From positions 9,264 through 73,263 of the forward strand of contig JAFDAI010000006.1 of assembly GCA_019313905.1 (NCBI GenBank): a stretch of 64,000 nt of DNA, read 5' to 3'. Below are positions 7,258 to 64,000 of the stretch, piece by piece. The notes beneath the pieces were generated by a model. The model was not told the DNA's origin and did no database searches. It worked only from the letters and a program-made list of their open reading frames with translations. A program made the position numbers and the translations under genes. This DNA is from Deltaproteobacteria bacterium. Its GTDB lineage: Bacteria; Desulfobacterota; Syntrophia; Syntrophales; UBA2210. Positions within the stretch are counted from its first letter, which is position 1, and each line of letters begins with the position of its first letter.

Positions 7258-8709
7258 GTGATGAAGATGCAACTGCCGTTACATAAGACCAAAATAATCT
7301 GCACGATCGGTCCCGCCTCGCAGTCGGAAACGGTTCTATCTGATATGATGCGCAGGGGGATGACCATCGCCCGAATCAACTTCTCCCACGGTACCCTGGA
7401 AGAGCACCAACAGACCATCGCCTCCATACGAATGGTGGCGGAGAAACTTGGCAGGCGCTGTCCCATCCTTGTCGATCTACCTGGTCCGAAGATGCGGATC
7501 GGTAAACTGGAGAAGGAACCGCTGTTTCTCACGAAGGGAACAGAGGTTACGTTAACCACCAGGAACGTTTTGGGTACACCGGCCATTATCCCCGTGACTT
7601 ACCGGAGACTTCCAGAAAGCGTTTCACCGGGGAGTGTTATCTATCTTAATGATGGTTTCATCGCCATGGAGGTGATAACGGTCCTGGACGATGAGGTTTT
7701 GTGCACGGTGACGATGGGAGGACAGCTCCTCTCTGGGAAGGGTCTCAATCTTCCCGGGGCAAAGATCTTCATGAATCCCGTTACCGACCGGGACCTCGAA
7801 CTGATGGACTTCACCCTCGGGGAGGGTATCACCACCTTCAGTACATCTTTCGTCGAAACGGCGGATGATATCATCCGGGCAAAAATGTTTGCCCGGGAGA
7901 AGGGCAGGGAAATCTATGTTGTAGCGAAGATCGAGCGAGCAGCCGCCGTCGAGAATATTGATGAAATCCTTGAAGTCGCGGATGCCATTATGATCGCCCG
8001 TGGTGATCTGGGGGTCGAAATCCCCATCGAAGAGGTTCCCATTGTTCAGAAGCAGTTGATTCGAAAGGCCAACCTCTCCTGCCGTCCCATTATCACGGCG
8101 ACGCAGATGCTGGAATCCATGATCGACAACACCCGTCCCACCAGGGCGGAGGCGACCGATGTCGCCAATGCCATTCTGGACGGCACCGATGCCGTTATGA
8201 TGTCTGAGGAGACGGCAATCGGCCAGTACCCCGTCGAAGCCGTGGAGGTAATGGCACGGATTGCCATCGCCCTGGAACGGCAGCGGCACATGATACGGTC
8301 ATCCATTTTCCTTCAGGAGCAGCTGAAAGAAGAACTGGTCAACCGCCAGATAACCGTTCCGGACACCGTTTCACTGAATGTTTCCGAGGCGGTCCGGGCG
8401 CTGGGTTGCCCCTTTGTCCTGACGGCTACTTCAGGGGGGATGACGGCGCGCCGCGTGTCGAGGCTCAAGCCTGACAGCTGGATTATAGCCTGCAATAACG
8501 ATGAACGGATCTGCGATTTTCTCCGGTTTTCATACGGTGTCTTTCCCATACTCATGGACACCGGCATCCGGAAATGGTACCGGAAGCTGATAAACCTTCT
8601 CAAGAATTCAGGACTTATCCGAAGGGGAGACAGGGTCATCCTGACGGAGGGCAAGTTCTCAGGCACGACGGGGGGAACCGACTCTCTGGGGATTATTACG
8701 ATCTCATAG
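7258..8709 (+). CDS. pyk: pyruvate kinase
   Basis: 483-aa ORF with KIICTIGPAS, ARINFSHG, MIARGDLGVEIP and TQMLESM motifs. The start could be the ATG at 7261. Confidence 0.9.
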   Translation: MMKMQLPLHKTKIICTIGPASQSETVLSDMMRRGMTIARINFSHGTLEEHQQTIASIRMVAEKLGRRCPILVDLPGPKMRIGKLEKEPLFLTKGTEVTLTTRNVLGTPAIIPVTYRRLPESVSPGSVIYLNDGFIAMEVITVLDDEVLCTVTMGGQLLSGKGLNLPGAKIFMNPVTDRDLELMDFTLGEGITTFSTSFVETADDIIRAKMFAREKGREIYVVAKIERAAAVENIDEILEVADAIMIARGDLGVEIPIEEVPIVQKQLIRKANLSCRPIITATQMLESMIDNTRPTRAEATDVANAILDGTDAVMMSEETAIGQYPVEAVEVMARIAIALERQRHMIRSSIFLQEQLKEELVNRQITVPDTVSLNVSEAVRALGCPFVLTATSGGMTARRVSRLKPDSWIIACNNDERICDFLRFSYGVFPILMDTGIRKWYRKLINLLKNSGLIRRGDRVILTEGKFSGTTGGTDSLGIITIS

Positions 8710-43189: not shown

Positions 43190-43266
<77 letters not shown>

Positions 43267-43323
43267 TAAATGGTGTCTATCCGGTTCCGATACATGGGGC
43301 TGTCCGGGCACGCAAATATATGT

Positions 43324-43401
43324 GGTGGATGTAGCTCAGTTGGTTAGAGTGCCTGGTTGTGGCCCAGGAGGTCGGGGGTTCAAGTCCCCTCATTCACCCC
43401 A
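43324..43401 (+). tRNA. tRNA-His (anticodon GTG) with encoded G-1 and CCA
   Basis: Acceptor GTGGATG/CATTCAC. An extra 5' G pairs with discriminator C. Anticodon stem CCTGG/CCAGG with loop TTGTGGC. T-loop TTCAAGT. Confidence 0.88.
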
Positions 43402-43410
43402 AATAAAAAC

Positions 43411-43447
43411 AAGGGGTTACGAGAGATTCGTAATCCCTTTGTTTTTG
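43411..43447 (+). terminator. rho-independent terminator after the tRNA pair
   Basis: About 12-bp stem AAGGGGTTACGA / TCGTAATCCCTT with a 5-nt loop, followed by TGTTTTTG. Confidence 0.7.
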
Positions 43448-43527
43448 CCTGATTTTAGATTTCCAACCCTCGGCTCTAATTTCAGCCTTTTTGCCTCTAT
43501 CTCACTACAAGAACCTGAATGTGGTGA

Positions 43528-43558
43528 TAAAAAAGGCAACGCCTTGATGACCTTGCCT
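43528..43558 (-). terminator. rho-independent terminator of the PEP-CTERM gene
   Basis: Minus strand: AGGCAA, 13-nt loop, TTGCCT, followed by TTTTTTATC. About 30 nt after the stop. Confidence 0.55.
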
Positions 43559-43589
43559 CCTTTAGTTAAGATTGTCAATTCTATAAATT

Positions 43590-44171
43590 TTATTTTTTTA
43601 TCCTTCGCCGGATTCCCGCTAAGCCGACCAAACCAAAGCCGAGAAAGAGGAGGGTGACAGGCTCGGGGACGCTGGTGGAGCCGTAAATGGATACGTGGGA
43701 AATGGCTCCCTGGTTTGGCCAGAAATTCTCCATGTAGATGGTATCGGTGCCGTCCCAACTAACAGACGGGGTCGGCGGGGACACAGAATGCAAATCAAAG
43801 ATGTACGATCCCTGAATGCCATCCTTAACCAAAAGATAAAGAGGATCTCCCGTAATATAGGGTCCCGATCCATAACTTATTGTCGCGTCCTCGGGATCAG
43901 TCGGTGTGTTATAGAAGGTAGTTTCGTAAGATGAGGCGAACGACCCGGATTCACCGCCATCGACGTCTTGCTTGTACAACTCAAACAAAGTCCCGCCGTA
44001 GCCAACTATACCAGGGATGTCAGCCGCTTGGGGGTTAGAATTGTCCGAATGCGATACAATCCACTGGGGAAGAGTATCCGGCGTAATTGTGAGGGCGCTT
44101 GCGCTGGCCACCATGCCAAACGTCACAAACGTCACACACAATATTGTCATTAATATCTTAATCTTTTTCAT
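43590..44171 (-). CDS. PEP-CTERM sorting-domain secreted protein
   Basis: Signal peptide MKKIKILMTILCVTFVTFGMVASASA. C-terminus VPEPVTLLFLGFGLVGLAGIRRRIKK (PEP motif + TM + basic tail). Start at 44171 follows GAGGTG. Confidence 0.85.
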   Translation of the reverse strand: MKKIKILMTILCVTFVTFGMVASASALTITPDTLPQWIVSHSDNSNPQAADIPGIVGYGGTLFELYKQDVDGGESGSFASSYETTFYNTPTDPEDATISYGSGPYITGDPLYLLVKDGIQGSYIFDLHSVSPPTPSVSWDGTDTIYMENFWPNQGAISHVSIYGSTSVPEPVTLLFLGFGLVGLAGIRRRIKK

Positions 44172-44224
44172 ATGACACCTCATAAGAGACTGTTTTATTC
44201 TTCTATTATTATTGGTAAACCAAC

Positions 44225-44239
44225 GCAATTTATATGCCC
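44225..44239 (-). promoter_or_regulatory. sigma-54 (-24/-12) promoter for the PEP-CTERM gene
   Basis: Minus strand reads GGGCATATAAATTGC, against consensus TGGCAC-N5-TTGC. The GG and GC dinucleotides are 12 nt apart. It lies 54 nt upstream of the ATG at 44171. Confidence 0.6.
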
Positions 44240-44650
44240 AATAACATTTATAAGTTTCATTTATGCATTATCTGTTTAATATAATTGATTAAATGTTAGA
44301 TAATATTTATCAAGAAGAAGGCTCTTTTTTTAACGCCATCACAATATGTAAATTTATCCGACACTAAAAGGTGGCAAATTTAGGCTCAGTTTCTTTATCT
44401 TATCGAATTATTTGATCTTTTAGAAAAATTAACTTATTTTAAGATTGTAAAAAATTCCGACACTCATAATGGAAGAATAGACGTATTCCAATATTCTATA
44501 ATAATTATAATACCATACAGCATTTTAAAGCTGTAAAGAGATCCGAGAGTTTTATGTAAATTTTACATTTTCGCTCTCGGAGCGCGTATTTTCACTTTCA
44601 ACTCTATAGATACTCAAATGTATTACCCCGCCGCAAGCAGCGGGGTATCA

Positions 44651-45048
44651 TCAAAAACATTGAACGTCCCAAGGGGCAGGGAATGTAACCCTGATCTGAT
44701 CTCTAATATTTTCGATTTCCTTGTCAAGATAGTCAATGTGTCCTTTGATCAATGGGGTGACGGATTCATGGGCACTACCGAGCCGGTTCTTCTCCTGGGT
44801 AAGCATACCTATCAGGCTGTCGGTCCTTCTGACCAGGGCTCGCAGGGATCTGATTTCGTGTGAAGGCGGAGTCCATGATTCCGGTCTCACGGCCATACAA
44901 AAACACGCAATAATACCTGCATCAACCTTGTCGATCTTTGTACGAATGGTGCGTTCTTGAATGATCTGTTCTTGACCTTGCCATCGACAAGCAATACCAC
45001 CTCTACCCTCTGTTTGGCGATGTCGATCCCGAGAATTGGTGTTGACAT
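44651..45048 (-). mobile_element. decayed IS110-family transposase (N-terminal DEDD-domain fragments only)
   Basis: ATG at 45048 after GGAGG gives MSTPILGIDIAKQRVEVVLLVDGKVKNRSFKNA.... A frame change follows to ..IRTKIDKVDAGIIACFCMAVRPESWTPPSHEIRSLRALVRRTDSLIGMLTQEKNRL.... About 60 internal residues and the whole C-terminal domain are missing. Confidence 0.7.
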
Positions 45049-55325: not shown

Positions 55326-55866
55326 ACAACTGGATATCCTGGAAAGCAGCAAACCGGATATTGTTCTCTGGAGCCTGTGGGCGGCAAAAGAAACGGGGTA
55401 CAAGGCAATAAGCAAGCTGCATCCCACCGTTTCTTCCGCACCCGGGTATTATGAAGTAAAATTGTTCTCAGCAGACGGGTCTTTGCCTGAAACGGGGGTT
55501 GTCTATACGCCTTGCGGACAGGTATCAGTCTGTTTTTTCATAAGCAGTGACCATATTCATTGTATCGGCACAACTCCGGATAGAGATACGGATTCGATCA
55601 TGTGGGATGTCCGTAAGATATACCGGCGCCGGTTTTCCCCCGATTATGAATCGGATCTTGTCCGGAATATGGCCGGGGAAAAGATAGCGCGCTATCTGAA
55701 AAAAGATTCGAAAGCCATAGAGATCATTCGTCCAAAGGGGCATCGCGGTCTCGGCCCCCCGGTAATCTATGCCGGAAAGAAAAGAACCGCAATCGACATC
55801 AGCATGAGCCACGACGGCCGGTTTGTGGCCTATGCGCTTCAGGACACAAACAATACTATTCATTAA
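55231..55866 (+). CDS. 4'-phosphopantetheinyl transferase
   Basis: GNDIVDL start and WAAKETGYKA (W..KEA..K) motif. TTG start preceded by GGAGAAAG. Confidence 0.6.
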   Translation: MVGNDIVDLTDSRTKGKSRDMRFMNRVFTPAEQLDILESSKPDIVLWSLWAAKETGYKAISKLHPTVSSAPGYYEVKLFSADGSLPETGVVYTPCGQVSVCFFISSDHIHCIGTTPDRDTDSIMWDVRKIYRRRFSPDYESDLVRNMAGEKIARYLKKDSKAIEIIRPKGHRGLGPPVIYAGKKRTAIDISMSHDGRFVAYALQDTNNTIH

Positions 55867-56056
55867 TAAAATCAATTAGTACCCATCTATCACATAGAAA
55901 ACGGGTGCCTTTATTTGAAATAAAAGAAAAGGTTTTTCGGAGAAAAGCAATTTCTTCCTGTCCTCCATAAACTCTTTCAATTATCCGGGCGTGATGATTT
56001 TTGCACTTAAGCAAAATTTGTTGTGTATTTATTTGCTTTATGGTAAATAAGCTCAC

Positions 56057-57223
56057 ATGATAATATCACGGTATCTAACAGAACCGATCCATCAGGATCT
56101 CAAAGAAAAGATGGTTTTCATTTCCGGGCCTCGGCAGGTAGGTAAAACAACTCTAGCGAAGACCTTTCTGGAAAAGAAAGAGTATCAGTATTATAACTGG
56201 GATAACCGGGCGGATCGAAAGAAGATATTAGCTGCACAGTGGCCGGCGGTTGAAAGCGTCATAGTATTTGATGAGCTTCATAAATATAAAAACTGGAAGG
56301 GCTGGATCAAGGGCGAATATGATTCTCATGGCGACCGAATCCAGTTTATCATAACAGGTAGCGCCCGATTGGATATTTACCGCAAGGGTGGAGATTCACT
56401 ACAGGGACGTTATCATGCTCATCGTTTACACGGTTTTTCAGTTGGTGAACTGCAAAAAACGAAGGCAACCCTTGTCCCCGGAAAAGAGATTGAGTTTCCC
56501 GAAAAGATTGAACAGGATCTGTTGCCTGCATTATTCCAGTTCGGTTCCTTTCCCGAGCCCTTCCTGAAGCAAAATAAGCGCGGTTTGAGAAGATGGCAGC
56601 GAGAACGCCTGGATCGTTTTTTCAGAGAAGATGTTCGTGATCTTGAAAACGTTCGGGATCTCTCGTCAATGGAACTCCTGGCGTCCATGCTCGAAGATCG
56701 TATAGGCAGTCTTCTTTCCCTCCAGTCATTGCGGGAAGATCTTGAAGTCAGCCATCGGGCGGTATCTCACTGGATGGCCATACTTGAACATTTGTATCAC
56801 TGTTTTAGTGTGACACCATTTACTCACAAATCCATACGATCGCTTAAAAAAGCTGCAAAGGTATATTTGTGGGACTGGTCTGTGGTGCCGGATAAGGGGG
56901 CCCGCTTTGAAAATCTCGTGGCATGTCACCTGTTAAAAATGAAACACGCCCTTGAAGATCAGGAGGGCTACAGAATTGGCCTTCACTACCTGAGAGATGC
57001 CGGAAAAAGAGAGGTTGATTTCCTGGTTACCGTTGAGAACAAGCCCTGGTTTGCCGTAGAATGCAAGACAGCAAGCCGGACGCCGAACCCCGCGCTCAAC
57101 TACTATGGCGAAAGACTGAAAATCCCCTACCTGTATCAGATAACACTTGAAGAGGGCGATGATACATTTAACGGCAGAGTCAGAGTGATGCCGGCCGGCA
57201 AGTTCCTGGGAGCGCTTCCATGA
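56057..57223 (+). CDS. AAA+ ATPase with DUF4143 (PD-(D/E)xK-like) C-terminal domain
   Basis: Walker A GPRQVGKTT, Walker B VIVFDELH, and C-terminal ..REVDFLV...AVECK nuclease-fold-like motif. Confidence 0.75.
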   Translation: MIISRYLTEPIHQDLKEKMVFISGPRQVGKTTLAKTFLEKKEYQYYNWDNRADRKKILAAQWPAVESVIVFDELHKYKNWKGWIKGEYDSHGDRIQFIITGSARLDIYRKGGDSLQGRYHAHRLHGFSVGELQKTKATLVPGKEIEFPEKIEQDLLPALFQFGSFPEPFLKQNKRGLRRWQRERLDRFFREDVRDLENVRDLSSMELLASMLEDRIGSLLSLQSLREDLEVSHRAVSHWMAILEHLYHCFSVTPFTHKSIRSLKKAAKVYLWDWSVVPDKGARFENLVACHLLKMKHALEDQEGYRIGLHYLRDAGKREVDFLVTVENKPWFAVECKTASRTPNPALNYYGERLKIPYLYQITLEEGDDTFNGRVRVMPAGKFLGALP

Positions 57224-57317
57224 TAAAACAAAACTCCAAGTCACCTGACACGCGCTCCAATCCTGCTCTGACAATTGTTTAGAATAATCAAGCATAAAGA
57301 ATCAAGAGGGACATAGT

Positions 57318-58838
57318 GTGAATAAAAAGAATAATAATTCGAATAATAATCATATTGAACTTTCCGGATTGTCGAATCACCTTTGGGAATCGGCAAGCAT
57401 ATTACGCGGTCCTATCGATGCGGCGGATTTCAAGACATATATTTTCCCGTTTTTATTCTTTAAGAGAATTTCAGATGTTTATGACGAAGAGATGAAAGCT
57501 GCTTTGGATGAATCCGATGGTGACCTTGAATACGCACAGTTTCCAGAAAACCATCGTTTCCAGATCCCGAATGACTGCCACTGGGAGGACATTCGAGAAA
57601 AAGGCGAAAATATCGGCTATGCGCTTCAGGAGGCCATGCGCAGTATAGAAAAGGCGAATCCCGACACTTTGCATAGTATATTTGGAGACGCTCAGTGGAC
57701 AAACAAAGACCGACTATCAGACGCACTCTTGAAAGACCTGATCGAACATTTTTCGAAATTGAGCCTTGGGAACCAAAACTGTAAAGCCGATATCCTCGGT
57801 CAATCCTATGAATATCTCATCAAAAAGTTTGCTGATCTGACGAATAAAAAGGCCGGTGAGTTCTATACGCCTCGTTCCGTTGTTGCGTTGATGGTGAGAA
57901 TACTGGCGCCGAGAGAAGGCGGAACAATCTATGATCCTGCCTGTGGAACCGGTGGAATGCTTTTAGAAGCACTGCATTATGTCAAAGAGCATGGTGGTAG
58001 TGAGAATTTGATGCTGGGAAAATTATATGGACAGGAAAAAAACCTGACAACGTCAGCCATTGCAAGAATGAATCTGTTTCTTCATGGGGCGGAAGATTTT
58101 CGCATTGAACGAGGAGATACCCTCCGCCTGCCTGCGTTCTACTCAGGCGACAGCTTGGCTACTTTTGATTGCGTCATTGCAAATCCACCTTTTTCACTCC
58201 AGAAGTGGGGTGATGAAATTTGGCAAAATGATCCGTATGGGCGAAATTTTGTAGGCTTGCCACCTGCTAAGACCGGTGATTTCGCCTGGGTTCAGCACAT
58301 GATCAAATCCATGGCACCCAAAACAGGTCGCATGGCTGTTGTTCTACCACACGGCGTACTTTTCCGCATGGCCAAAGAGGGCAAAATTCGGCGCAAACTC
58401 ATTGAAATTGATATTCTTGAGGCAGTCATTGGATTAGGACCAAATCTTTTTTACGGCACCGGCTTGGCGGCCTGTATATTGGTCTTTCGAGCAACGAAAC
58501 AACAGTCGCACCGGGAAAGGGTGCTCTTCATCGACGCATCAAAAGAATTCAAGACAGGTAGAGCACAGAACGAGCTTTTACCGGAACATATAGAGAATAT
58601 ACATGGGTGGTATGCTGATTTTCAAGATGTCGAAGGTGCTTGTCGGGTAATCACGCTCGATGAAGTCAGGGAGAATGACTACAACCTGAACATCCCACGC
58701 TACGTGGAACCGGTTATCGAAGAAGAAACCATGACCTTGGATCAGGCTATCGCAAATTTTAAAGAATCGATTGAGGCAGCATATAAAGCGGAAGATCGAC
58801 TTAAAGATTTATTGAAGCGTGAGGGTCTAATGACATGA
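57318..58838 (+). CDS. hsdM: type I restriction-modification DNA methyltransferase subunit M, copy 1
   Basis: 506 aa. HsdM_N-type start (LW..A..LRG), EFYTPRSVV, DPACGTGGML (motif I) and NPPF (motif IV). Confidence 0.9.
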   Translation: MNKKNNNSNNNHIELSGLSNHLWESASILRGPIDAADFKTYIFPFLFFKRISDVYDEEMKAALDESDGDLEYAQFPENHRFQIPNDCHWEDIREKGENIGYALQEAMRSIEKANPDTLHSIFGDAQWTNKDRLSDALLKDLIEHFSKLSLGNQNCKADILGQSYEYLIKKFADLTNKKAGEFYTPRSVVALMVRILAPREGGTIYDPACGTGGMLLEALHYVKEHGGSENLMLGKLYGQEKNLTTSAIARMNLFLHGAEDFRIERGDTLRLPAFYSGDSLATFDCVIANPPFSLQKWGDEIWQNDPYGRNFVGLPPAKTGDFAWVQHMIKSMAPKTGRMAVVLPHGVLFRMAKEGKIRRKLIEIDILEAVIGLGPNLFYGTGLAACILVFRATKQQSHRERVLFIDASKEFKTGRAQNELLPEHIENIHGWYADFQDVEGACRVITLDEVRENDYNLNIPRYVEPVIEEETMTLDQAIANFKESIEAAYKAEDRLKDLLKREGLMT

Positions 58839-61096
58839 AAGATGCACAAAAACCAGATCACATAAGTCTGAACACACTCATTAATAGACTGAAGGAAGGC
58901 CGATTCGTTATTCCGGATTTTCAGAGAGAGTTCGAATGGCGGCCTTGGGATATCAAAGATTTAATGCGATCAATCTTTCTCGATTATTACATTGGCAGCA
59001 TGTTGTTATGGAAAGGTAAAAGAGAGAATTTCAATGCCTTATCCTGCGAAATTCTCTATGGATTCGACAACAAAACCGGGCAGCATCCTTGGAACTACAA
59101 TGGTGGCAAACCGGAGTACATCGTGCTTGATGGACAACAGCGACTCACGGCTCTATATTATGCATTCATTGCGCCAGATGTACCACTGCCCAATAGGGCT
59201 AATCGTGCGGTTTATTTTATACATGTCGATAAGTTCATGGACGAACACTACGATGAAGCCTTTCAATATGATTGGCTTTCGAGGCGCTTTAATAAAATCT
59301 TGAATGATCGTAAGGTGCAGTATGATGAACATATATTTCCTCTCTCAGTGGTAGGCGCCGGGGGATGGGATTTGCCTAATTGGGTGCAAGGTTATGAGCA
59401 ATACTGGGGAAAAGCGGCGTCAGATGCCCAAGGTCGTGGCAATGCAGCAGAAGCAGAGAGTGCAAAACGACATGCTCAGAATGCGAAAGCATTCGGCGAG
59501 CACCTGAAAGGTATCACTGAAGAATATCAGATTGCATATATAGAGCTCAATAAAGACATAGCGGTCGATAAGGTTTGTGACATTTTTACCCAGATCAACA
59601 GTCGTGGTATTAGGCTTGATGTTTTCGACCTCGTCAACGCCCTGATTAAGCCAAAGGGACTTCAGCTCAAACACATGTGGAGAAAAGCGGCGCCCCGCTT
59701 AGAGTTTGTTGATACGGAAAAGATGAATGTCTATATTTTGCAGGTAATGTCAATCTTGCGACAGTCTTACTGCTCTCCAAAATATCTCTATTATTTGCTT
59801 CCCGGTCAGGAAAAACAGGTAAGAGACCCCGATGGCACAAAAAGAAAAGAAGTCCTCATACCGGACATCGTTGATTTCGAGAAGCGATGGGATGAGGCCG
59901 TAGTTGCACTTGAGAATGCGATCAGGCTCTTACGACATCCACAAGAGTTTGGAGCTGTTTCGTCACAATACCTGCCTTATGTTTCCGTTCTTCCCGTTTT
60001 TGCAGCCTTGCAGGCGCAAAGCACAACCCTGCCCGCCAACAAGCGGCTTGATGCCCAGCGCAAAATCCGTTATTGGTACTGGGCATCGGTGTTCATAAAC
60101 CGTTATTCAGGCTCTGTTGAGTCGACAAGTGCCCGTGATTTCCTTGATGTAAAGGCATGGTTAGAAGATGATGCTGCCGAACCTGTGCTATTACAGGAGT
60201 TCAAGATCCATTTCAAGAATCTGGAGTTACGCAAAGAAAACAAGAAAGGCACTTCTGTTTACAACGGCATATTTAACTTGCTTGTTCTTCAGGGCGCTCG
60301 GGACTGGATGACTGGCAATGTTCCGCAATATGATGATCTTGATGACCACCATATTGTGCCCGCCTCTTGGGGGGCAAGGAATCTGGGAAACAACTCTGTT
60401 CACACAATCCTTAACAGAACCCCGTTGAGTGCTGATACCAATAGGAATATTATTAACGATAGATTGCCTAATGAATATCTACCAGAACTGATCTCAAACA
60501 ATGGGGAGAAGGCTGTGCGCGCTATCCTCGAGTCGCACTTTATATCGCAAGTGGCGCAGGAAATCTTAATGCGCGATCCGTTTACTCCTGATGATTTTGA
60601 GGCATTTATTTCTGAGCGCCAGCGCACTATTCAAGATGCCATAGAGAATCTACTAATCAAAGAGCGTCTGGATCTTTCGCCTCAGCTCCGTGAGTTGGAT
60701 GAGAACATTGAACAAACAGAACTTGGCTTACGCCAGATAATTGTCAAAACCTTTGGCGAAGATGCCTCACAACTTCCTCAACACATTCAACAAAAAGTCG
60801 GTGAAAGAATTCAAGGTGCAGCTAAGAAAAATCCCGCTATGGATACGGAACGGTATCAAACCCTTCCCGGCATGATTGAGTTCTTTGACCTGCGGGACCT
60901 TCAGGACGCAATTACATCCAAGACATATTGGGCACAATTCGAATCAAGATTCTCTAATAAAGAAATGCTTATGGCAAAGTTCAGTCAACTAGTAGGGCTC
61001 AGGAATGTCATTCGCCATAGCCGTACAGTCGACGATATTACCAGGAAAGAGGGCGAGGCAGCGATTCTTTGGTTTAAACAGGTCTTGGGGAAATGA
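58835..61096 (+). CDS. DUF262 (ParB/GmrS-like) + His-Me finger (DUF1524-like) + C-terminal Swt1-like HEPN fusion protein
   Basis: IPDFQREFEW and DGQQRLT (aa 99-105, nt 59129-59149). DDHHIVP...N...N (His pair at nt 60347-60352). LRNVIRHS Rx4H HEPN motif (nt 61001-61018). ATGA overlaps at both ends. Confidence 0.7.
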   Translation: MKDAQKPDHISLNTLINRLKEGRFVIPDFQREFEWRPWDIKDLMRSIFLDYYIGSMLLWKGKRENFNALSCEILYGFDNKTGQHPWNYNGGKPEYIVLDGQQRLTALYYAFIAPDVPLPNRANRAVYFIHVDKFMDEHYDEAFQYDWLSRRFNKILNDRKVQYDEHIFPLSVVGAGGWDLPNWVQGYEQYWGKAASDAQGRGNAAEAESAKRHAQNAKAFGEHLKGITEEYQIAYIELNKDIAVDKVCDIFTQINSRGIRLDVFDLVNALIKPKGLQLKHMWRKAAPRLEFVDTEKMNVYILQVMSILRQSYCSPKYLYYLLPGQEKQVRDPDGTKRKEVLIPDIVDFEKRWDEAVVALENAIRLLRHPQEFGAVSSQYLPYVSVLPVFAALQAQSTTLPANKRLDAQRKIRYWYWASVFINRYSGSVESTSARDFLDVKAWLEDDAAEPVLLQEFKIHFKNLELRKENKKGTSVYNGIFNLLVLQGARDWMTGNVPQYDDLDDHHIVPASWGARNLGNNSVHTILNRTPLSADTNRNIINDRLPNEYLPELISNNGEKAVRAILESHFISQVAQEILMRDPFTPDDFEAFISERQRTIQDAIENLLIKERLDLSPQLRELDENIEQTELGLRQIIVKTFGEDASQLPQHIQQKVGERIQGAAKKNPAMDTERYQTLPGMIEFFDLRDLQDAITSKTYWAQFESRFSNKEMLMAKFSQLVGLRNVIRHSRTVDDITRKEGEAAILWFKQVLGK

Positions 61097-62613
61097 ATAA
61101 ACGTATTGCACAAGCTGAACTTGAATCATACCTCTGGGGTGCGGCAACCCTGCTGCGCGGCCACATCGATGCCGGGGACTACAAACAATTTATTTTCCCC
61201 CTGCTTTTCTACAAGAGGTTGTGCGACGTCTATGATGGGGAAATTACTCAATCATTGGAAGAATCAAGTGGCGATAAAGAATATGCCAGGCTCCCGGAGC
61301 AGCATCGGTTTCAAATCCCGATGGAAGCGCACTGGAAAGTCATTCGCACCAAGGTCAAAAATATCGGCAAGGCCATTCAGGATGCTCTCCGCTCAATCGA
61401 AAAGACAAATCCCGATACCCTCTATAGCGTATTCGGGGATGCACAATGGACCAACAAGGAACGACTGCCGGACAGCATGCTTAGAGAGCTCATCGAACAT
61501 TTCAGTTCCAAAACACTATCCATAGAAAATTTGCCTGAGGATGAACTCGGACTTGGATATGAATTTCTTATAAAGAAGTTTGCCGACGACTCCGGACATA
61601 CGGCGGCTGAATTCTATACTAACCGGACCCTGGTCCATCTTATGACCGAAATGCTTGAACCAAGCCCGGGTGAATCAATTTACGATCCCACATGCGGTTC
61701 TGCCGGGATGCTGCTCTCCGCTGTGTCGCATTTAAAACGGCAAAACAATGAATGGCGCAATCTCAAACTTTACGGCCAGGAACGCAACCTGTTGACCTCG
61801 GCGATAGGTCGTATGAATCTCTTCCTGCACGGTATTGTCGACTTTAAGATCGTCAGGGGAGATACACTTGCGCACCCGGCATATGTGCAGGGCGATCGGC
61901 TCATGCAATTCGACGTTGTGCTGGCCAATCCACCATATTCCATCAAACAGTGGGATCGTAAAGCCTGGTCATCTGATCCGTGGGGGCGCAATATTTACGG
62001 TACGCCACCACAGGGCCGTGCTGACTATGCCTTCTGGCAGCATATTATCGCCAGCATGAAACCTAAAACCGGCCGCTGCGCAATCCTCTTCCCCCATGGT
62101 GTCCTTTTCCGCAACGAAGAACTTGGTATGCGTGAGAAGCTCATCGCTCATGACTTGATAGAGTGTGTACTCGGGCTGGGACCGAATCTATTTTATAACT
62201 CGCCAATGGAGGCCTGTGTCGTTATCTGCCGCATGGCCAAACCACGAGAAAGGCGGAACAAAGTTCTCTTCATAAATGCGGTAAACGAAGTCACCCGAGA
62301 GCGGGCGCAGAGTTTTCTGACTGACGAGCATATTTCAAAGATCGTGAATGCATATCGTGATTTTGAAGACTCAAACGGATTTGCTCGTGTAGCTGATGTG
62401 AGCGAAGTTCGGGAAAAAGGAAATAATTTGAGTATCCCACTCTACGTGCGAATGAACAATGGAAATCATGTGCTCGGCATTGCAGAACACGCGCCTCCAT
62501 ACGGACTCACGCCGCTTACTCAAGCAATAGATGAGTGGCAAAAAAGCTCACAAGAATTACATGAATCTCTAAATGAATTATTTGAAACTCTGGAGGGCAA
62601 TTACCGTGGATAA
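61093..62613 (+). CDS. hsdM: type I RM methyltransferase subunit M, copy 2 (divergent paralog)
   Basis: Also 506 aa and colinear with copy 1 (roughly half or more of N-terminal residues identical by eye). NPPY motif IV. Atypical EFYTNRTLV and DPTCGSAGML. Confidence 0.85.
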   Translation: MNKRIAQAELESYLWGAATLLRGHIDAGDYKQFIFPLLFYKRLCDVYDGEITQSLEESSGDKEYARLPEQHRFQIPMEAHWKVIRTKVKNIGKAIQDALRSIEKTNPDTLYSVFGDAQWTNKERLPDSMLRELIEHFSSKTLSIENLPEDELGLGYEFLIKKFADDSGHTAAEFYTNRTLVHLMTEMLEPSPGESIYDPTCGSAGMLLSAVSHLKRQNNEWRNLKLYGQERNLLTSAIGRMNLFLHGIVDFKIVRGDTLAHPAYVQGDRLMQFDVVLANPPYSIKQWDRKAWSSDPWGRNIYGTPPQGRADYAFWQHIIASMKPKTGRCAILFPHGVLFRNEELGMREKLIAHDLIECVLGLGPNLFYNSPMEACVVICRMAKPRERRNKVLFINAVNEVTRERAQSFLTDEHISKIVNAYRDFEDSNGFARVADVSEVREKGNNLSIPLYVRMNNGNHVLGIAEHAPPYGLTPLTQAIDEWQKSSQELHESLNELFETLEGNYRG

Positions 62614-63922
62614 AGCCACACCCTTCTCCCAAGAGAAGCTCAATGAAATATTTAAAATATTGCCTAAGAACCCCGAAAGAGTAATTTCTCGGGAAAGCAG
62701 AAATTTAGAATTTAAAGAATCCTTCGGCTGGAAAAGTCTGCCAAAGTATCTCAAGACATGTGCTTCATTTGCTAATACAAAAGGAGGATACATTGTATAT
62801 GGCATAGCAAATCGGCCGCATAAGCTCATTGGTCTTACAGGGGCCAATTTGAAGTTGTTCGAAGGCATTGATCCTGCGAAATTGGCAATGTATTTTAATG
62901 AACATTTTTCACCCGAGATGATTTGGGATATCCAAGAGTATGAACTCAGTGGAAGAAGCTATGGTCTTCTATATGTACACGAATCGCAGGATAAGCCGGT
63001 TGTCTGCACCAAGAATGCAGAACAAGAGCTAAAAGAAGGGGATATTTACTATCGGTATCGTGGGCGCTCCCAAAGAATTAAATATCCAGAATTGCGAAGT
63101 ATTTTGGATTATAAGAGAGAGAGCGAACAGCGGCTATGGATGCGACACCTTACACAGATTGCCAAGATTGGCGTTAAGGACACTGGAATTTTTGATCTTC
63201 AAACAGGGCAAGTTACCGGAACAGAAGGAGCCTTTCTTATTGATGAATCTTTGCTGAGTCAGTTGTCTTTTATAAAGGAAGGAGAGTTTTTCGAGACTAA
63301 GGGCAGGCCAACGCTTAAACTCATTGGAAGCATAAAATCAATTAAAGGTGGTCTGCCAATAATTGGACAAAAACAGATAATCAGAAGTAAAGGAATACGA
63401 ATCGGTGATATAGTCTTGGCATTCCTAAATAACCTGAAGATTGATGATCCAACCGAGTATATCAAACAAATCTGTTTCGAAAGTACAGGGTTTCTACCTG
63501 TATATTATTTTATGCATAGAAGTGGTTTTAATAAAGACAAAACGATTGGCTTAATCGAAAAAGTTATATCCCGTTCTCAGTCAAAAAATAAATTGCTTGA
63601 GCGATTACAGGAACAAAAAACTCAATATTTAAAACTATCTTTATCAAATACGCCTGCCGCCGTAAAAAGACGGACATATGTCGAACAAGCCAAAAAGAAA
63701 GGGATTCCTTTAGATCTTGGCAACCAGGAGATCAATTATTGCCTGAAAGGGCTGCGCACGCTCACTCCCGAAGAAGTAAAAAGACTCTCTGATTACATCT
63801 GTGACACATTGAGAACGTGGTTCAATAAGCACTATGCATCTGGCGATGGAGTGTTGGCAGACAATCTCAGACGGACAATATGCTGGGTCGATGAAGCGCT
63901 GTACATGGAGGGTCTGGAATGA
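62606..63922 (+). CDS. Schlafen/AlbA_2-domain putative nucleic-acid-binding protein
   Basis: ESRNLEFKESF...KTCASFANTKGGYIVYGI is the AlbA_2 signature. The C-terminal ~250 aa are unassigned. GTG at 62606 follows GGAGGG and overlaps the hsdM2 stop by 8 nt. Confidence 0.65.
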   Translation: MDKATPFSQEKLNEIFKILPKNPERVISRESRNLEFKESFGWKSLPKYLKTCASFANTKGGYIVYGIANRPHKLIGLTGANLKLFEGIDPAKLAMYFNEHFSPEMIWDIQEYELSGRSYGLLYVHESQDKPVVCTKNAEQELKEGDIYYRYRGRSQRIKYPELRSILDYKRESEQRLWMRHLTQIAKIGVKDTGIFDLQTGQVTGTEGAFLIDESLLSQLSFIKEGEFFETKGRPTLKLIGSIKSIKGGLPIIGQKQIIRSKGIRIGDIVLAFLNNLKIDDPTEYIKQICFESTGFLPVYYFMHRSGFNKDKTIGLIEKVISRSQSKNKLLERLQEQKTQYLKLSLSNTPAAVKRRTYVEQAKKKGIPLDLGNQEINYCLKGLRTLTPEEVKRLSDYICDTLRTWFNKHYASGDGVLADNLRRTICWVDEALYMEGLE

Positions 63923-64000
63923 GCATACTCGAAGATCTCGCTCGGTGGGTAGAAAAAAAGCCTTTGGTTTTGATGAGATTTGACAAGGAATTTGCTGAGT
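63919..64000 (+). CDS. 5' end of a further coupled ORF, function unknown (runs off the right edge)
   Basis: ATGA overlap with the preceding stop. Manual translation gives MSILEDLARWVEKKPLVLMRFDKEFAE.... Only 27 codons are visible. Confidence 0.35.
   Translation, partial: MSILEDLARWVEKKPLVLMRFDKEFAE

Follow-up and report, generated by a model that had tools for sequence, protein, structure and literature searches.

Two hsdM genes with interleaved passenger genes very probably form the 5' part of one PacII-type restriction-modification operon

Why would an operon carry two different hsdM genes, each followed by a gene for a nuclease or nucleic-acid-binding protein in the place of hsdS? This arrangement occurs at the 3' end of a 64,000-nucleotide (nt) stretch of contig JAFDAI010000006.1 (positions 9,264 to 73,263; GenBank assembly GCA_019313905.1) from a Deltaproteobacteria bacterium of the order Syntrophales. 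We refer to the whole stretch as the window and give all positions relative to its first base. At 57318-64000, hsdM1 is followed by a gene for a 753-amino-acid (aa) protein with a DUF262 domain, hsdM2, a gene for an AlbA_2 protein, and the start of a fifth gene. A preliminary description of the locus proposed that the two methyltransferase subunits guard or license a set of effectors. Our analysis points elsewhere: the region is very probably the 5' part of one type I restriction-modification (R-M) operon of the PacII type, a class that forms N4-methylcytosine (m4C) and N6-methyladenine (m6A), carrying passenger genes.

The two hsdM genes bear most directly on this reading. Both lie on the + strand and encode proteins of 506 aa, hsdM1 at 57318-58838 (GTG start, with AAGAGGG 6 nt 5' of it) and hsdM2 at 61093-62613. 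Pfam identified HsdM_N and N6_Mtase in both products (E = 1e-101 and 4e-85), and the hsdM1 product was also recognized by PADLOC as MTase_I. The two HsdM had been described as equal in length and clearly diverged, which is correct, as their sequences are 54% identical over 455 aa. Pairwise alignment revealed that motif IV reads IANPPFS in the hsdM1 product (M1) and LANPPYS in the hsdM2 product (M2). M2 also contains a loop, N369-S-P-M-E373, that is invariant in the M2 alignment. Across all loci of relatives that we fetched (designated by L-numbers below), NPPF without NSPME was present in 69/69 M1 orthologues, and NPPY together with NSPME in 88/88 M2 orthologues. The HsdM proteins of these loci fall into two orthologous lineages, the upstream protein being 57-90% identical to M1 and the downstream one 61-91% identical to M2, with 45-54% identity between the lineages.

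These features match a published class of enzymes. The m4C/m6A type I R-M systems have two M genes, one S gene, and one R gene (Morgan et al. 2016, PMC5100572), arranged in the order M1-M2-S-R. According to the same study, m6A is the product of the upstream M1, which carries NPPF, and m4C that of the downstream M2, which carries NPPY; the two are 45-55% identical and join with S in a heterotrimeric M1M2S methyltransferase. Full PacII methylation requires both M subunits, and more than 300 two-M systems are catalogued in REBASE (PMC5100572). In M2.PacII, the m4C subunit has a conserved active-site loop, N375-S-P-M-E379, and Zhu et al. 2022 (PMC9613975) give the crystal structure of the PacII M1M2S complex as PDB 7VRU. 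Each window protein was closest to its own PacII chain. The best PDB match of M1 was 7vru_A, for which the alignment shows NPPF (591 bits vs 483 bits to 7vru_B), and that of M2 was 7vru_B, which has NPPY and NSPME (632 bits vs 445 bits to 7vru_A); the next best HsdM in the PDB scored 239 or 204 bits. The locus thus resembles PacII-type systems in having an NPPF protein encoded upstream of an NPPY protein, an identity between the two that lies within the published range, and the NSPME loop in M2. From these sequences, we assign the hsdM1 product as the M1 subunit of a PacII-type type I R-M system, predicted to form m6A, and the hsdM2 product as the M2 subunit of the same system, predicted to form m4C.

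Where, then, are hsdS and hsdR? Searching the 64-kilobase (kb) window by tblastn with HsdS and HsdR of relatives gave no match on either strand, and the preliminary statement that neither gene is in view is true of the window. The best explanation is that the window ends at 64000, because relatives have both genes downstream. In the closest syntenic relative (L002), whose proteins are 91% (DUF262), 90% (M1), 91% (M2), and 85% (AlbA_2) identical to those of the window, the order is M1-DUF262-M2-AlbA_2-hsdS (Methylase_S)-hsdR. The HsdR of this relative contains HSDR_N, SWI2_SNF2, ResIII, and T1R_D3 domains, and its gene runs into the contig end; searching with it returned matches of 79-91% identity. 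Loci L005-L007, in which the DUF262 protein is 77% identical to that of the window, have the order M1-DUF262-M2-hsdS-hsdR (988 aa) without an AlbA_2 gene. The order M1-DUF262-M2 ... hsdS ... hsdR was found in L033, L034, and L045, from Verrucomicrobia and Planctomycetaceae. A Geobacteraceae locus (L032) has hsdS fused to M2, and a Bipolaricaulota contig (L014) ends inside M2. Hence, the order hsdM1-DUF262-hsdM2 is found again in relatives from several phyla; the preliminary description had named the presence of the five-gene order in other genomes as a check.

Every relative with enough downstream sequence had exactly one hsdS and one hsdR, as in PacII-type systems. Together with the identity of M1 and M2 as a known pair, this result speaks against the proposal that the two methyltransferases guard or license effectors. 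The N-termini of hsdS products from related loci were strikingly conserved (KPGWKMVKFGD), which fits the published remark that m4C half-site domains are few and similar (PMC5100572). We predict that this locus has its hsdS and hsdR shortly past base 64000.

We next consider what the interleaved genes represent. Extra open reading frames (ORFs) occupy the M1/M2 junction in 6 of 10 characterised PacII-type systems and the M2/hsdS junction in 2 of 10 (PMC5100572). The window locus is alike in having extra ORFs in these junctions, and it differs from the characterised systems in combining three cargo genes. Scanning metagenomes with an M2 profile, we identified at least 583 relatives (best match 81% identity), and we fetched and annotated 80 M2-centred loci. 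M1 was upstream of M2 in 66 of the 80. In these 66 loci, the M1/M2 junction was empty in 38, usually with an ATGA overlap between M1 and M2, contained a 75-aa ORF in 7, and contained larger cargo genes in 21. The M2/hsdS junction could be assessed in 39 loci, where it was empty in 13 and held cargo in 26. Around 15 loci of the sample had a long M2 that appears to be fused to hsdS, as published for one characterised system, Dac11109IV. Fused M2 ORFs of ~900 aa, with hsdR directly after them, were seen in L117, L119, L136, L140, L143, L147, and L157.

Cluster representatives of the cargo were assigned by Pfam to several families: DUF6088 with AbiEii, AbiEi_2, AIPR, AAA_13, TIR_2, HTH_3 with Peptidase_M78, and DUF4062 with HATPase_c_4 and a winged helix-turn-helix (wHTH). 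Such a set of families is typical of defence and abortive infection. The DUF262 gene filled the M1/M2 slot in 5/80 loci (L102, L107, L144, L148, and L156), and it was ruled out on this count as an obligatory part of two-M systems. Homologues of the AlbA_2 gene filled the M2/hsdS slot in 4/80 loci (L092, L093, L127, and L151). Both junctions are known insertion sites, and the interleaved genes are optional cargo there. The preliminary description was right that a nuclease or nucleic-acid-binding gene follows each hsdM; the idea that these genes replace hsdS is not supported, since the cargo is optional. As a separate observation, the conserved 75-aa ORF (L089:2286-2513; also L091, L097, L098, L100, and L101) sits in an M1/M2 spacer of ~200 nt and has no Pfam match. 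These six loci are among the closest M2 loci (79-81% identity).

In the window, the cargo is joined seamlessly to the methyltransferase genes. An ORF scan and direct reading of the junctions agreed with the preliminary description in finding five consecutive + strand genes with coupled, overlapping stop and start codons, and the ORF scan and domain search returned the same gene order, including an unassigned fifth gene. The first cargo gene, encoding the DUF262 protein (58835-61096, + strand), has an ATGA overlap at either end, and ATGA was read directly at 58835, 61093, and 63919. The second, encoding the 438-aa AlbA_2 protein (62606-63922, + strand), begins with GTG and shares its first 8 nt with the end of hsdM2 (GTGGATAA at 62606-62613). 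The ORF scan also allows a start at 62573; 62606 is most likely because GGAGGG precedes the overlap. The fifth gene (63919-64000, + strand) continues for 27 codons before the window ends. Overlapping stop and start codons are normal for operons and not unusual as such. Promoter and terminator consensus counts at 55800-64000 were at the same level as in shuffled sequence. The earlier view that this is one coupled unit, and need not be two ordinary R-M systems, is in keeping with these results, in that one operon contains the M1/M2 pair of a single PacII-type system.

By analogy with the family, M1 and M2 would assemble with one HsdS into a heterotrimeric M1M2S complex. On a bipartite, asymmetric target, M1 would place m6A in one half-site and M2 would place m4C in the other, and the complex together with HsdR would restrict unmethylated DNA. 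The DUF262 gene would be cargo of the M1/M2 junction, and the AlbA_2 gene and a fifth gene belonging to a ~430-aa family would be cargo of the M2/hsdS junction. Cargo genes would be on the same transcript as the R-M genes and translationally coupled to them, yet their products would act independently. An activity of the DUF262 protein on modified phage DNA would complement classical restriction.

Several points weigh against this interpretation. The locus differs from characterised PacII-type systems in that its own hsdS and hsdR lie outside the window, which stops 27 codons into the fifth gene, and were not seen. Methylation and restriction by the locus are predicted from its genes. Nuclease labels in the C-terminal half of the DUF262 protein are based on motifs. 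Finally, the cargo is coupled by seamless ATGA overlaps on both sides, which would also fit a functional link to the R-M complex.

What could the DUF262 protein do? Pfam placed GmrSD_N/DUF262 at residues 13-271 (E = 1.3e-32), and PADLOC matched the protein to HEC-05 and, at residues 627-735, to PDC-M34B (E = 5e-8). An alignment of 37 homologues contained the invariant DUF262 motifs F29-Q30-R31, D99-G-Q-Q-R103, and F251...N255. Searching the PDB with a profile of the protein identified BrxU (7p9k, E = 4e-16). The full-length structural model was of low confidence (predicted local distance difference test, pLDDT, 64), and Foldseek again matched it to BrxU only (7p9k/7p9m), with poor TM-scores. 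Alignment to an ordinary GmrSD_N protein with hhalign covered residues 10-427, encompassing DUF262 and a helical linker (98% probability), and stopped at 427.

Beyond this point, two further sets of invariant residues stood out in the alignment. Residues D503-D-H-H-I-V-P509, N527, and N536 fit the H...N...N pattern of a His-Me finger. Pfam did not detect DUF1524 in the full protein or, with E values allowed up to 10, in the fragment by itself; the motif alone fits, and residues 464-543 belong to an unreliable part of the model (pLDDT < 50). Near the C-terminus, R723-N-x-I-R-H728 fits the R-x4-6-H motif of HEPN domains. Residues 596-753 were confidently modelled as all-alpha (pLDDT 88.6); for a HEPN fold, this region gave no Foldseek match against the PDB at E ≤ 0.001 and no Pfam match. 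Therefore, of the preliminary label "DUF262/His-Me/HEPN," the first part is confirmed by Pfam, and the other two are plausible from their motifs and have no Pfam match.

The closest functional comparisons are with GmrSD-like proteins. RloF of Campylobacter jejuni is a GmrSD-like gene embedded in a defence operon. TgvAB lies within the type I R-M operon of Vibrio cholerae VPI-2 and protects even when HsdR is inactivated (PMC11411939), and BrxU/HEC-05, which is known from BREX and Hma systems, and HEC-06 protect when cloned alone (Payne et al. preprint, 10.1101/2024.01.29.577857). More generally, GmrSD-like genes embedded in type I R-M or other defence operons act independently (PMC11411939; 10.1101/2024.01.29.577857). 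The window gene resembles TgvAB, RloF, and BrxU/HEC-05 in its N-terminal DUF262 domain with DGQQR and in its location inside an R-M operon, and it also belongs to a family found both inside and outside such operons. BrxU is its best match in the PDB by sequence and structure, with the sequence similarity confined to the DUF262 domain. There are differences as well: TgvAB requires two proteins, whereas the window gene encodes a single one; the window protein has the H...N...N motif without a Pfam DUF1524; and it has an extra C-terminal domain with R-x4-H and is encoded between two hsdM genes. By this analogy, the protein is most likely an NTP-dependent nuclease of the GmrSD/BrxU/TgvAB kind, directed against modified phage DNA that escapes classical restriction.

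A second comparison is with Swt1-like HEPN fusions, among which Anantharaman et al. 2013 (PMC3710099) list "ParB (DUF262) with HNH," VNG7073, as active. The same survey describes HEPN families embedded in R-M operons (PMC3710099). The window protein has the same predicted three-part architecture as VNG7073, for which an active R-x4-6-H is listed; it differs in that its HEPN fold was confirmed by neither Pfam nor Foldseek. Homologues from Halobacterium plasmids align to residue 751 of the 753 at ~26% identity, and a plasmid collection contained distant homologues only (< 30% identity). The HEPN-like domain could possibly add an RNase activity to the protein, as its motif suggests.

The distribution of this family is broader than that of PacII-type systems. 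More than 2,800 homologues of the 753-aa protein were found in bacteria and archaea, and over 120 of these reach ≥ 70% identity. Scanning GTDB species genomes yielded 224 confirmed relatives in many bacterial phyla and in methanogenic archaea, and 80 of their loci were fetched. The gene is also present in type I operons with a single M gene, where HsdM and M1 share only 28-33% identity. The order in these operons is M-DUF262-S-R in L020, L026, L031, L053, and L061; M-S-DUF262-R and DUF262-M-S-R also occur, and ATGA overlaps are frequent. Of the 54 DUF262 loci flanked by 3 kb or more on either side, 17 have a type I gene next to DUF262, 6 have one nearby, and 31 have none. Four DUF262 loci without type I genes (L035, L042, L056, and L064) have type III-like Res (ResIII) and Mod (N6_N4_Mtase) or helicase neighbours, such as Res (ResIII)-DUF262-Mod (N6_N4_Mtase) at L042:6646-14789. 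The gene thus occurs in both type I and type III-like loci and is associated with R-M operons generally rather than with type I only.

Identities of the cargo and its flanks were incongruent. In comparison with L005 and L014, identity is 73-77% for the DUF262 protein but only 57% for M1, and with L034 it is 69% and 76%, respectively. These sequence differences fit cassette exchange. In an endosymbiont of Escarpia spicata (L015:9992-12507), the DUF262 gene is followed, after an ATGA overlap, by an 82-aa hsdM2 fragment, with no R-M system nearby. This locus looks like the relic of a cassette transfer that included a piece of the flank. We infer that the cargo genes are autonomous, horizontally mobile genes of a defence type and not subunits of the R-M enzyme.

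The AlbA_2 protein has SLFN_AlbA_2 at residues 30-158 (Pfam, E about 7e-20) and 522 homologues at E ≤ 1e-20, under the NCBI name "ATP-binding protein." Its sequence is 100% identical to a protein cluster that includes NCBI MBW2630562.1. One homologue stands alone beside toxin-antitoxin genes in Prosthecochloris, and another is beside transposase and integrase genes in a different genome. In Geotalea sp. SG265 (L171:2596-11559), a single-M locus has the order hsdS fragment-hsdM-RhuM-hsdS-AlbA_2-hsdR with all genes overlapping, which makes it another type I operon with seamlessly packed cargo (Virulence_RhuM and AlbA_2).

The fifth gene contributes 27 residues to the window (MSILEDLARWVEKKPLVLMRFDKEFAE). 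The N-terminal sequence, MSILEDLARWVEKKPLVLMRFD, has matches at the N-termini of two proteins, one of 428 aa in L110 (MSLIAKLPKWFESKPLVVLRFDE...; 7279-8565) and one of 449 aa in L129 (6523-7872). These two share 61% identity, and in L129 the gene is directly upstream of hsdS. This family had no match in Pfam, PADLOC, or NCBIfam. We considered hsdS itself as a candidate for the fifth gene and rejected it, since the N-terminus is unlike the conserved start of related hsdS products. In L002, the first ~44 nt of the gene are kept, the frame ends after 21 codons, and hsdS follows 58 nt past the AlbA_2 stop; this relative has apparently lost the fifth gene. Judging from these sequence matches, the gene is probably a third cargo gene from an unannotated family of ~430-450 aa, located before hsdS.

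Could the cargo instead be wired to the R-M complex? In its general form, this alternative, which we regard as unlikely, holds that the DUF262 protein is a dedicated second layer serving R-M complexes at large, including several type I families and type III. The methyltransferase complex would restrain the DUF262 protein, and a phage that blocks or evades restriction would trigger its DNase activity, its HEPN RNase activity, or both. If true, the protein would be a PrrC-like guard built on a GmrSD chassis, and the ATGA coupling would provide matched stoichiometry.

PrrC/EcoprrI and RloC, both HEPN anticodon nucleases, are encoded within type I R-M loci. Applied to the window locus, a PrrC-like guard would unite the R-M operon and its cargo in a single two-layer system, in which the DUF262 protein, and perhaps the AlbA_2 protein, is held inactive by M1M2S(R) and released when an anti-restriction protein of the Ocr or ArdA type disables R-M. 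The DUF262 gene is indeed coupled on both sides within type I operons of unrelated HsdM, and it is also found between type III-like res and mod genes. Its R-x4-H motif recalls the HEPN nucleases PrrC and RloC of type I loci (PMC3710099), and the PacII structural study reports that Ocr and ArdA inhibit PacII (PMC9613975). The likeness to PrrC and RloC extends to the position of an accessory gene with a HEPN-type motif in a type I operon, that of the "restriction-linked ORFs." However, PrrC and RloC have an ABC/AAA_13 ATPase at the N-terminus where the window protein has a DUF262 NTPase, and an AAA_13 protein was found in the M2/hsdS slot of L100 and L101, not in the window locus. A guard would also have to be reconciled with the 31 of 54 well-flanked DUF262 loci that have no type I gene nearby, the M1/M2 slot that is empty in most PacII-type loci (38/66), and the unconfirmed HEPN fold of residues 596-753 (Foldseek). 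On balance, we consider that such a guard is improbable here, and prefer the reading of a PacII-type operon with passengers.

Less probable still is a composite module in which two divergent orphan HsdM, without HsdS or HsdR, protect the host from the interleaved effectors or license them. The 64-kb window without hsdS and hsdR speaks for this idea, as do the nuclease-type gene after each hsdM and the recurrence of the gene order in relatives. Against it are the single hsdS and single hsdR of all relatives with sufficient downstream sequence, and the direct adjacency of M1 and M2, with no effector between them, in 38/66 loci. Moreover, M1 and M2 are orthologues of the PacII subunits, which were shown experimentally to work with HsdS. 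Type I HsdM requires HsdS for DNA recognition. Least probable of all is that two systems collapsed, leaving hsdM1 and the DUF262 gene as a remnant without hsdS and hsdR beside an intact hsdM2-hsdS-hsdR: DUF262 stands between hsdM and hsdS in many single-M operons, and a deletion could therefore give the picture in the window, but M1 orthologues are intact, always NPPF, and always paired with an NPPY M2 (66/80 loci), the single-M HsdM beside DUF262 are far more distant from M1 (28-33% identity) than M2 is (54%), and PacII needs both subunits for full methylation (PMC5100572).

Two features upstream of the operon deserve mention. An AAA_14 and DUF4143 ATPase gene at 56057-57223 (+ strand) ends 94 nt 5' of hsdM1 and matches the PADLOC candidate PDC-S01 (E = 2e-53). 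In L021, L039, and L083, homologues of this ATPase gene are no more than 10 kb away from DUF262, and it may be a further defence-island gene. Farther upstream, tRNA-Arg(TCT) and tRNA-His(GTG) at 43190-43401 are followed by a dip in G+C content at 43500-45000 (0.39-0.41 vs ~0.46-0.49) and a switch in GC skew. The tRNA genes and dip (43190-45000) may represent an island boundary; 14 kb containing fatty-acid-type genes separate them from the R-M locus downstream.

In conclusion, two hsdM genes that are ~50% identical, with NPPF encoded upstream and NPPY downstream, are the mark of the published m4C/m6A type I systems rather than of a new module. The M1/M2 and M2/hsdS junctions of these systems act as cargo slots for AbiE, AIPR, TIR, AAA_13, GmrSD-like, and unannotated families. 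They could therefore be mined for defence genes through "guilt by embedding." Two candidates stand out from the present locus: the widespread 753-aa DUF262/His-Me/HEPN protein, whose domains are partly putative, and the unannotated ~430-aa family.

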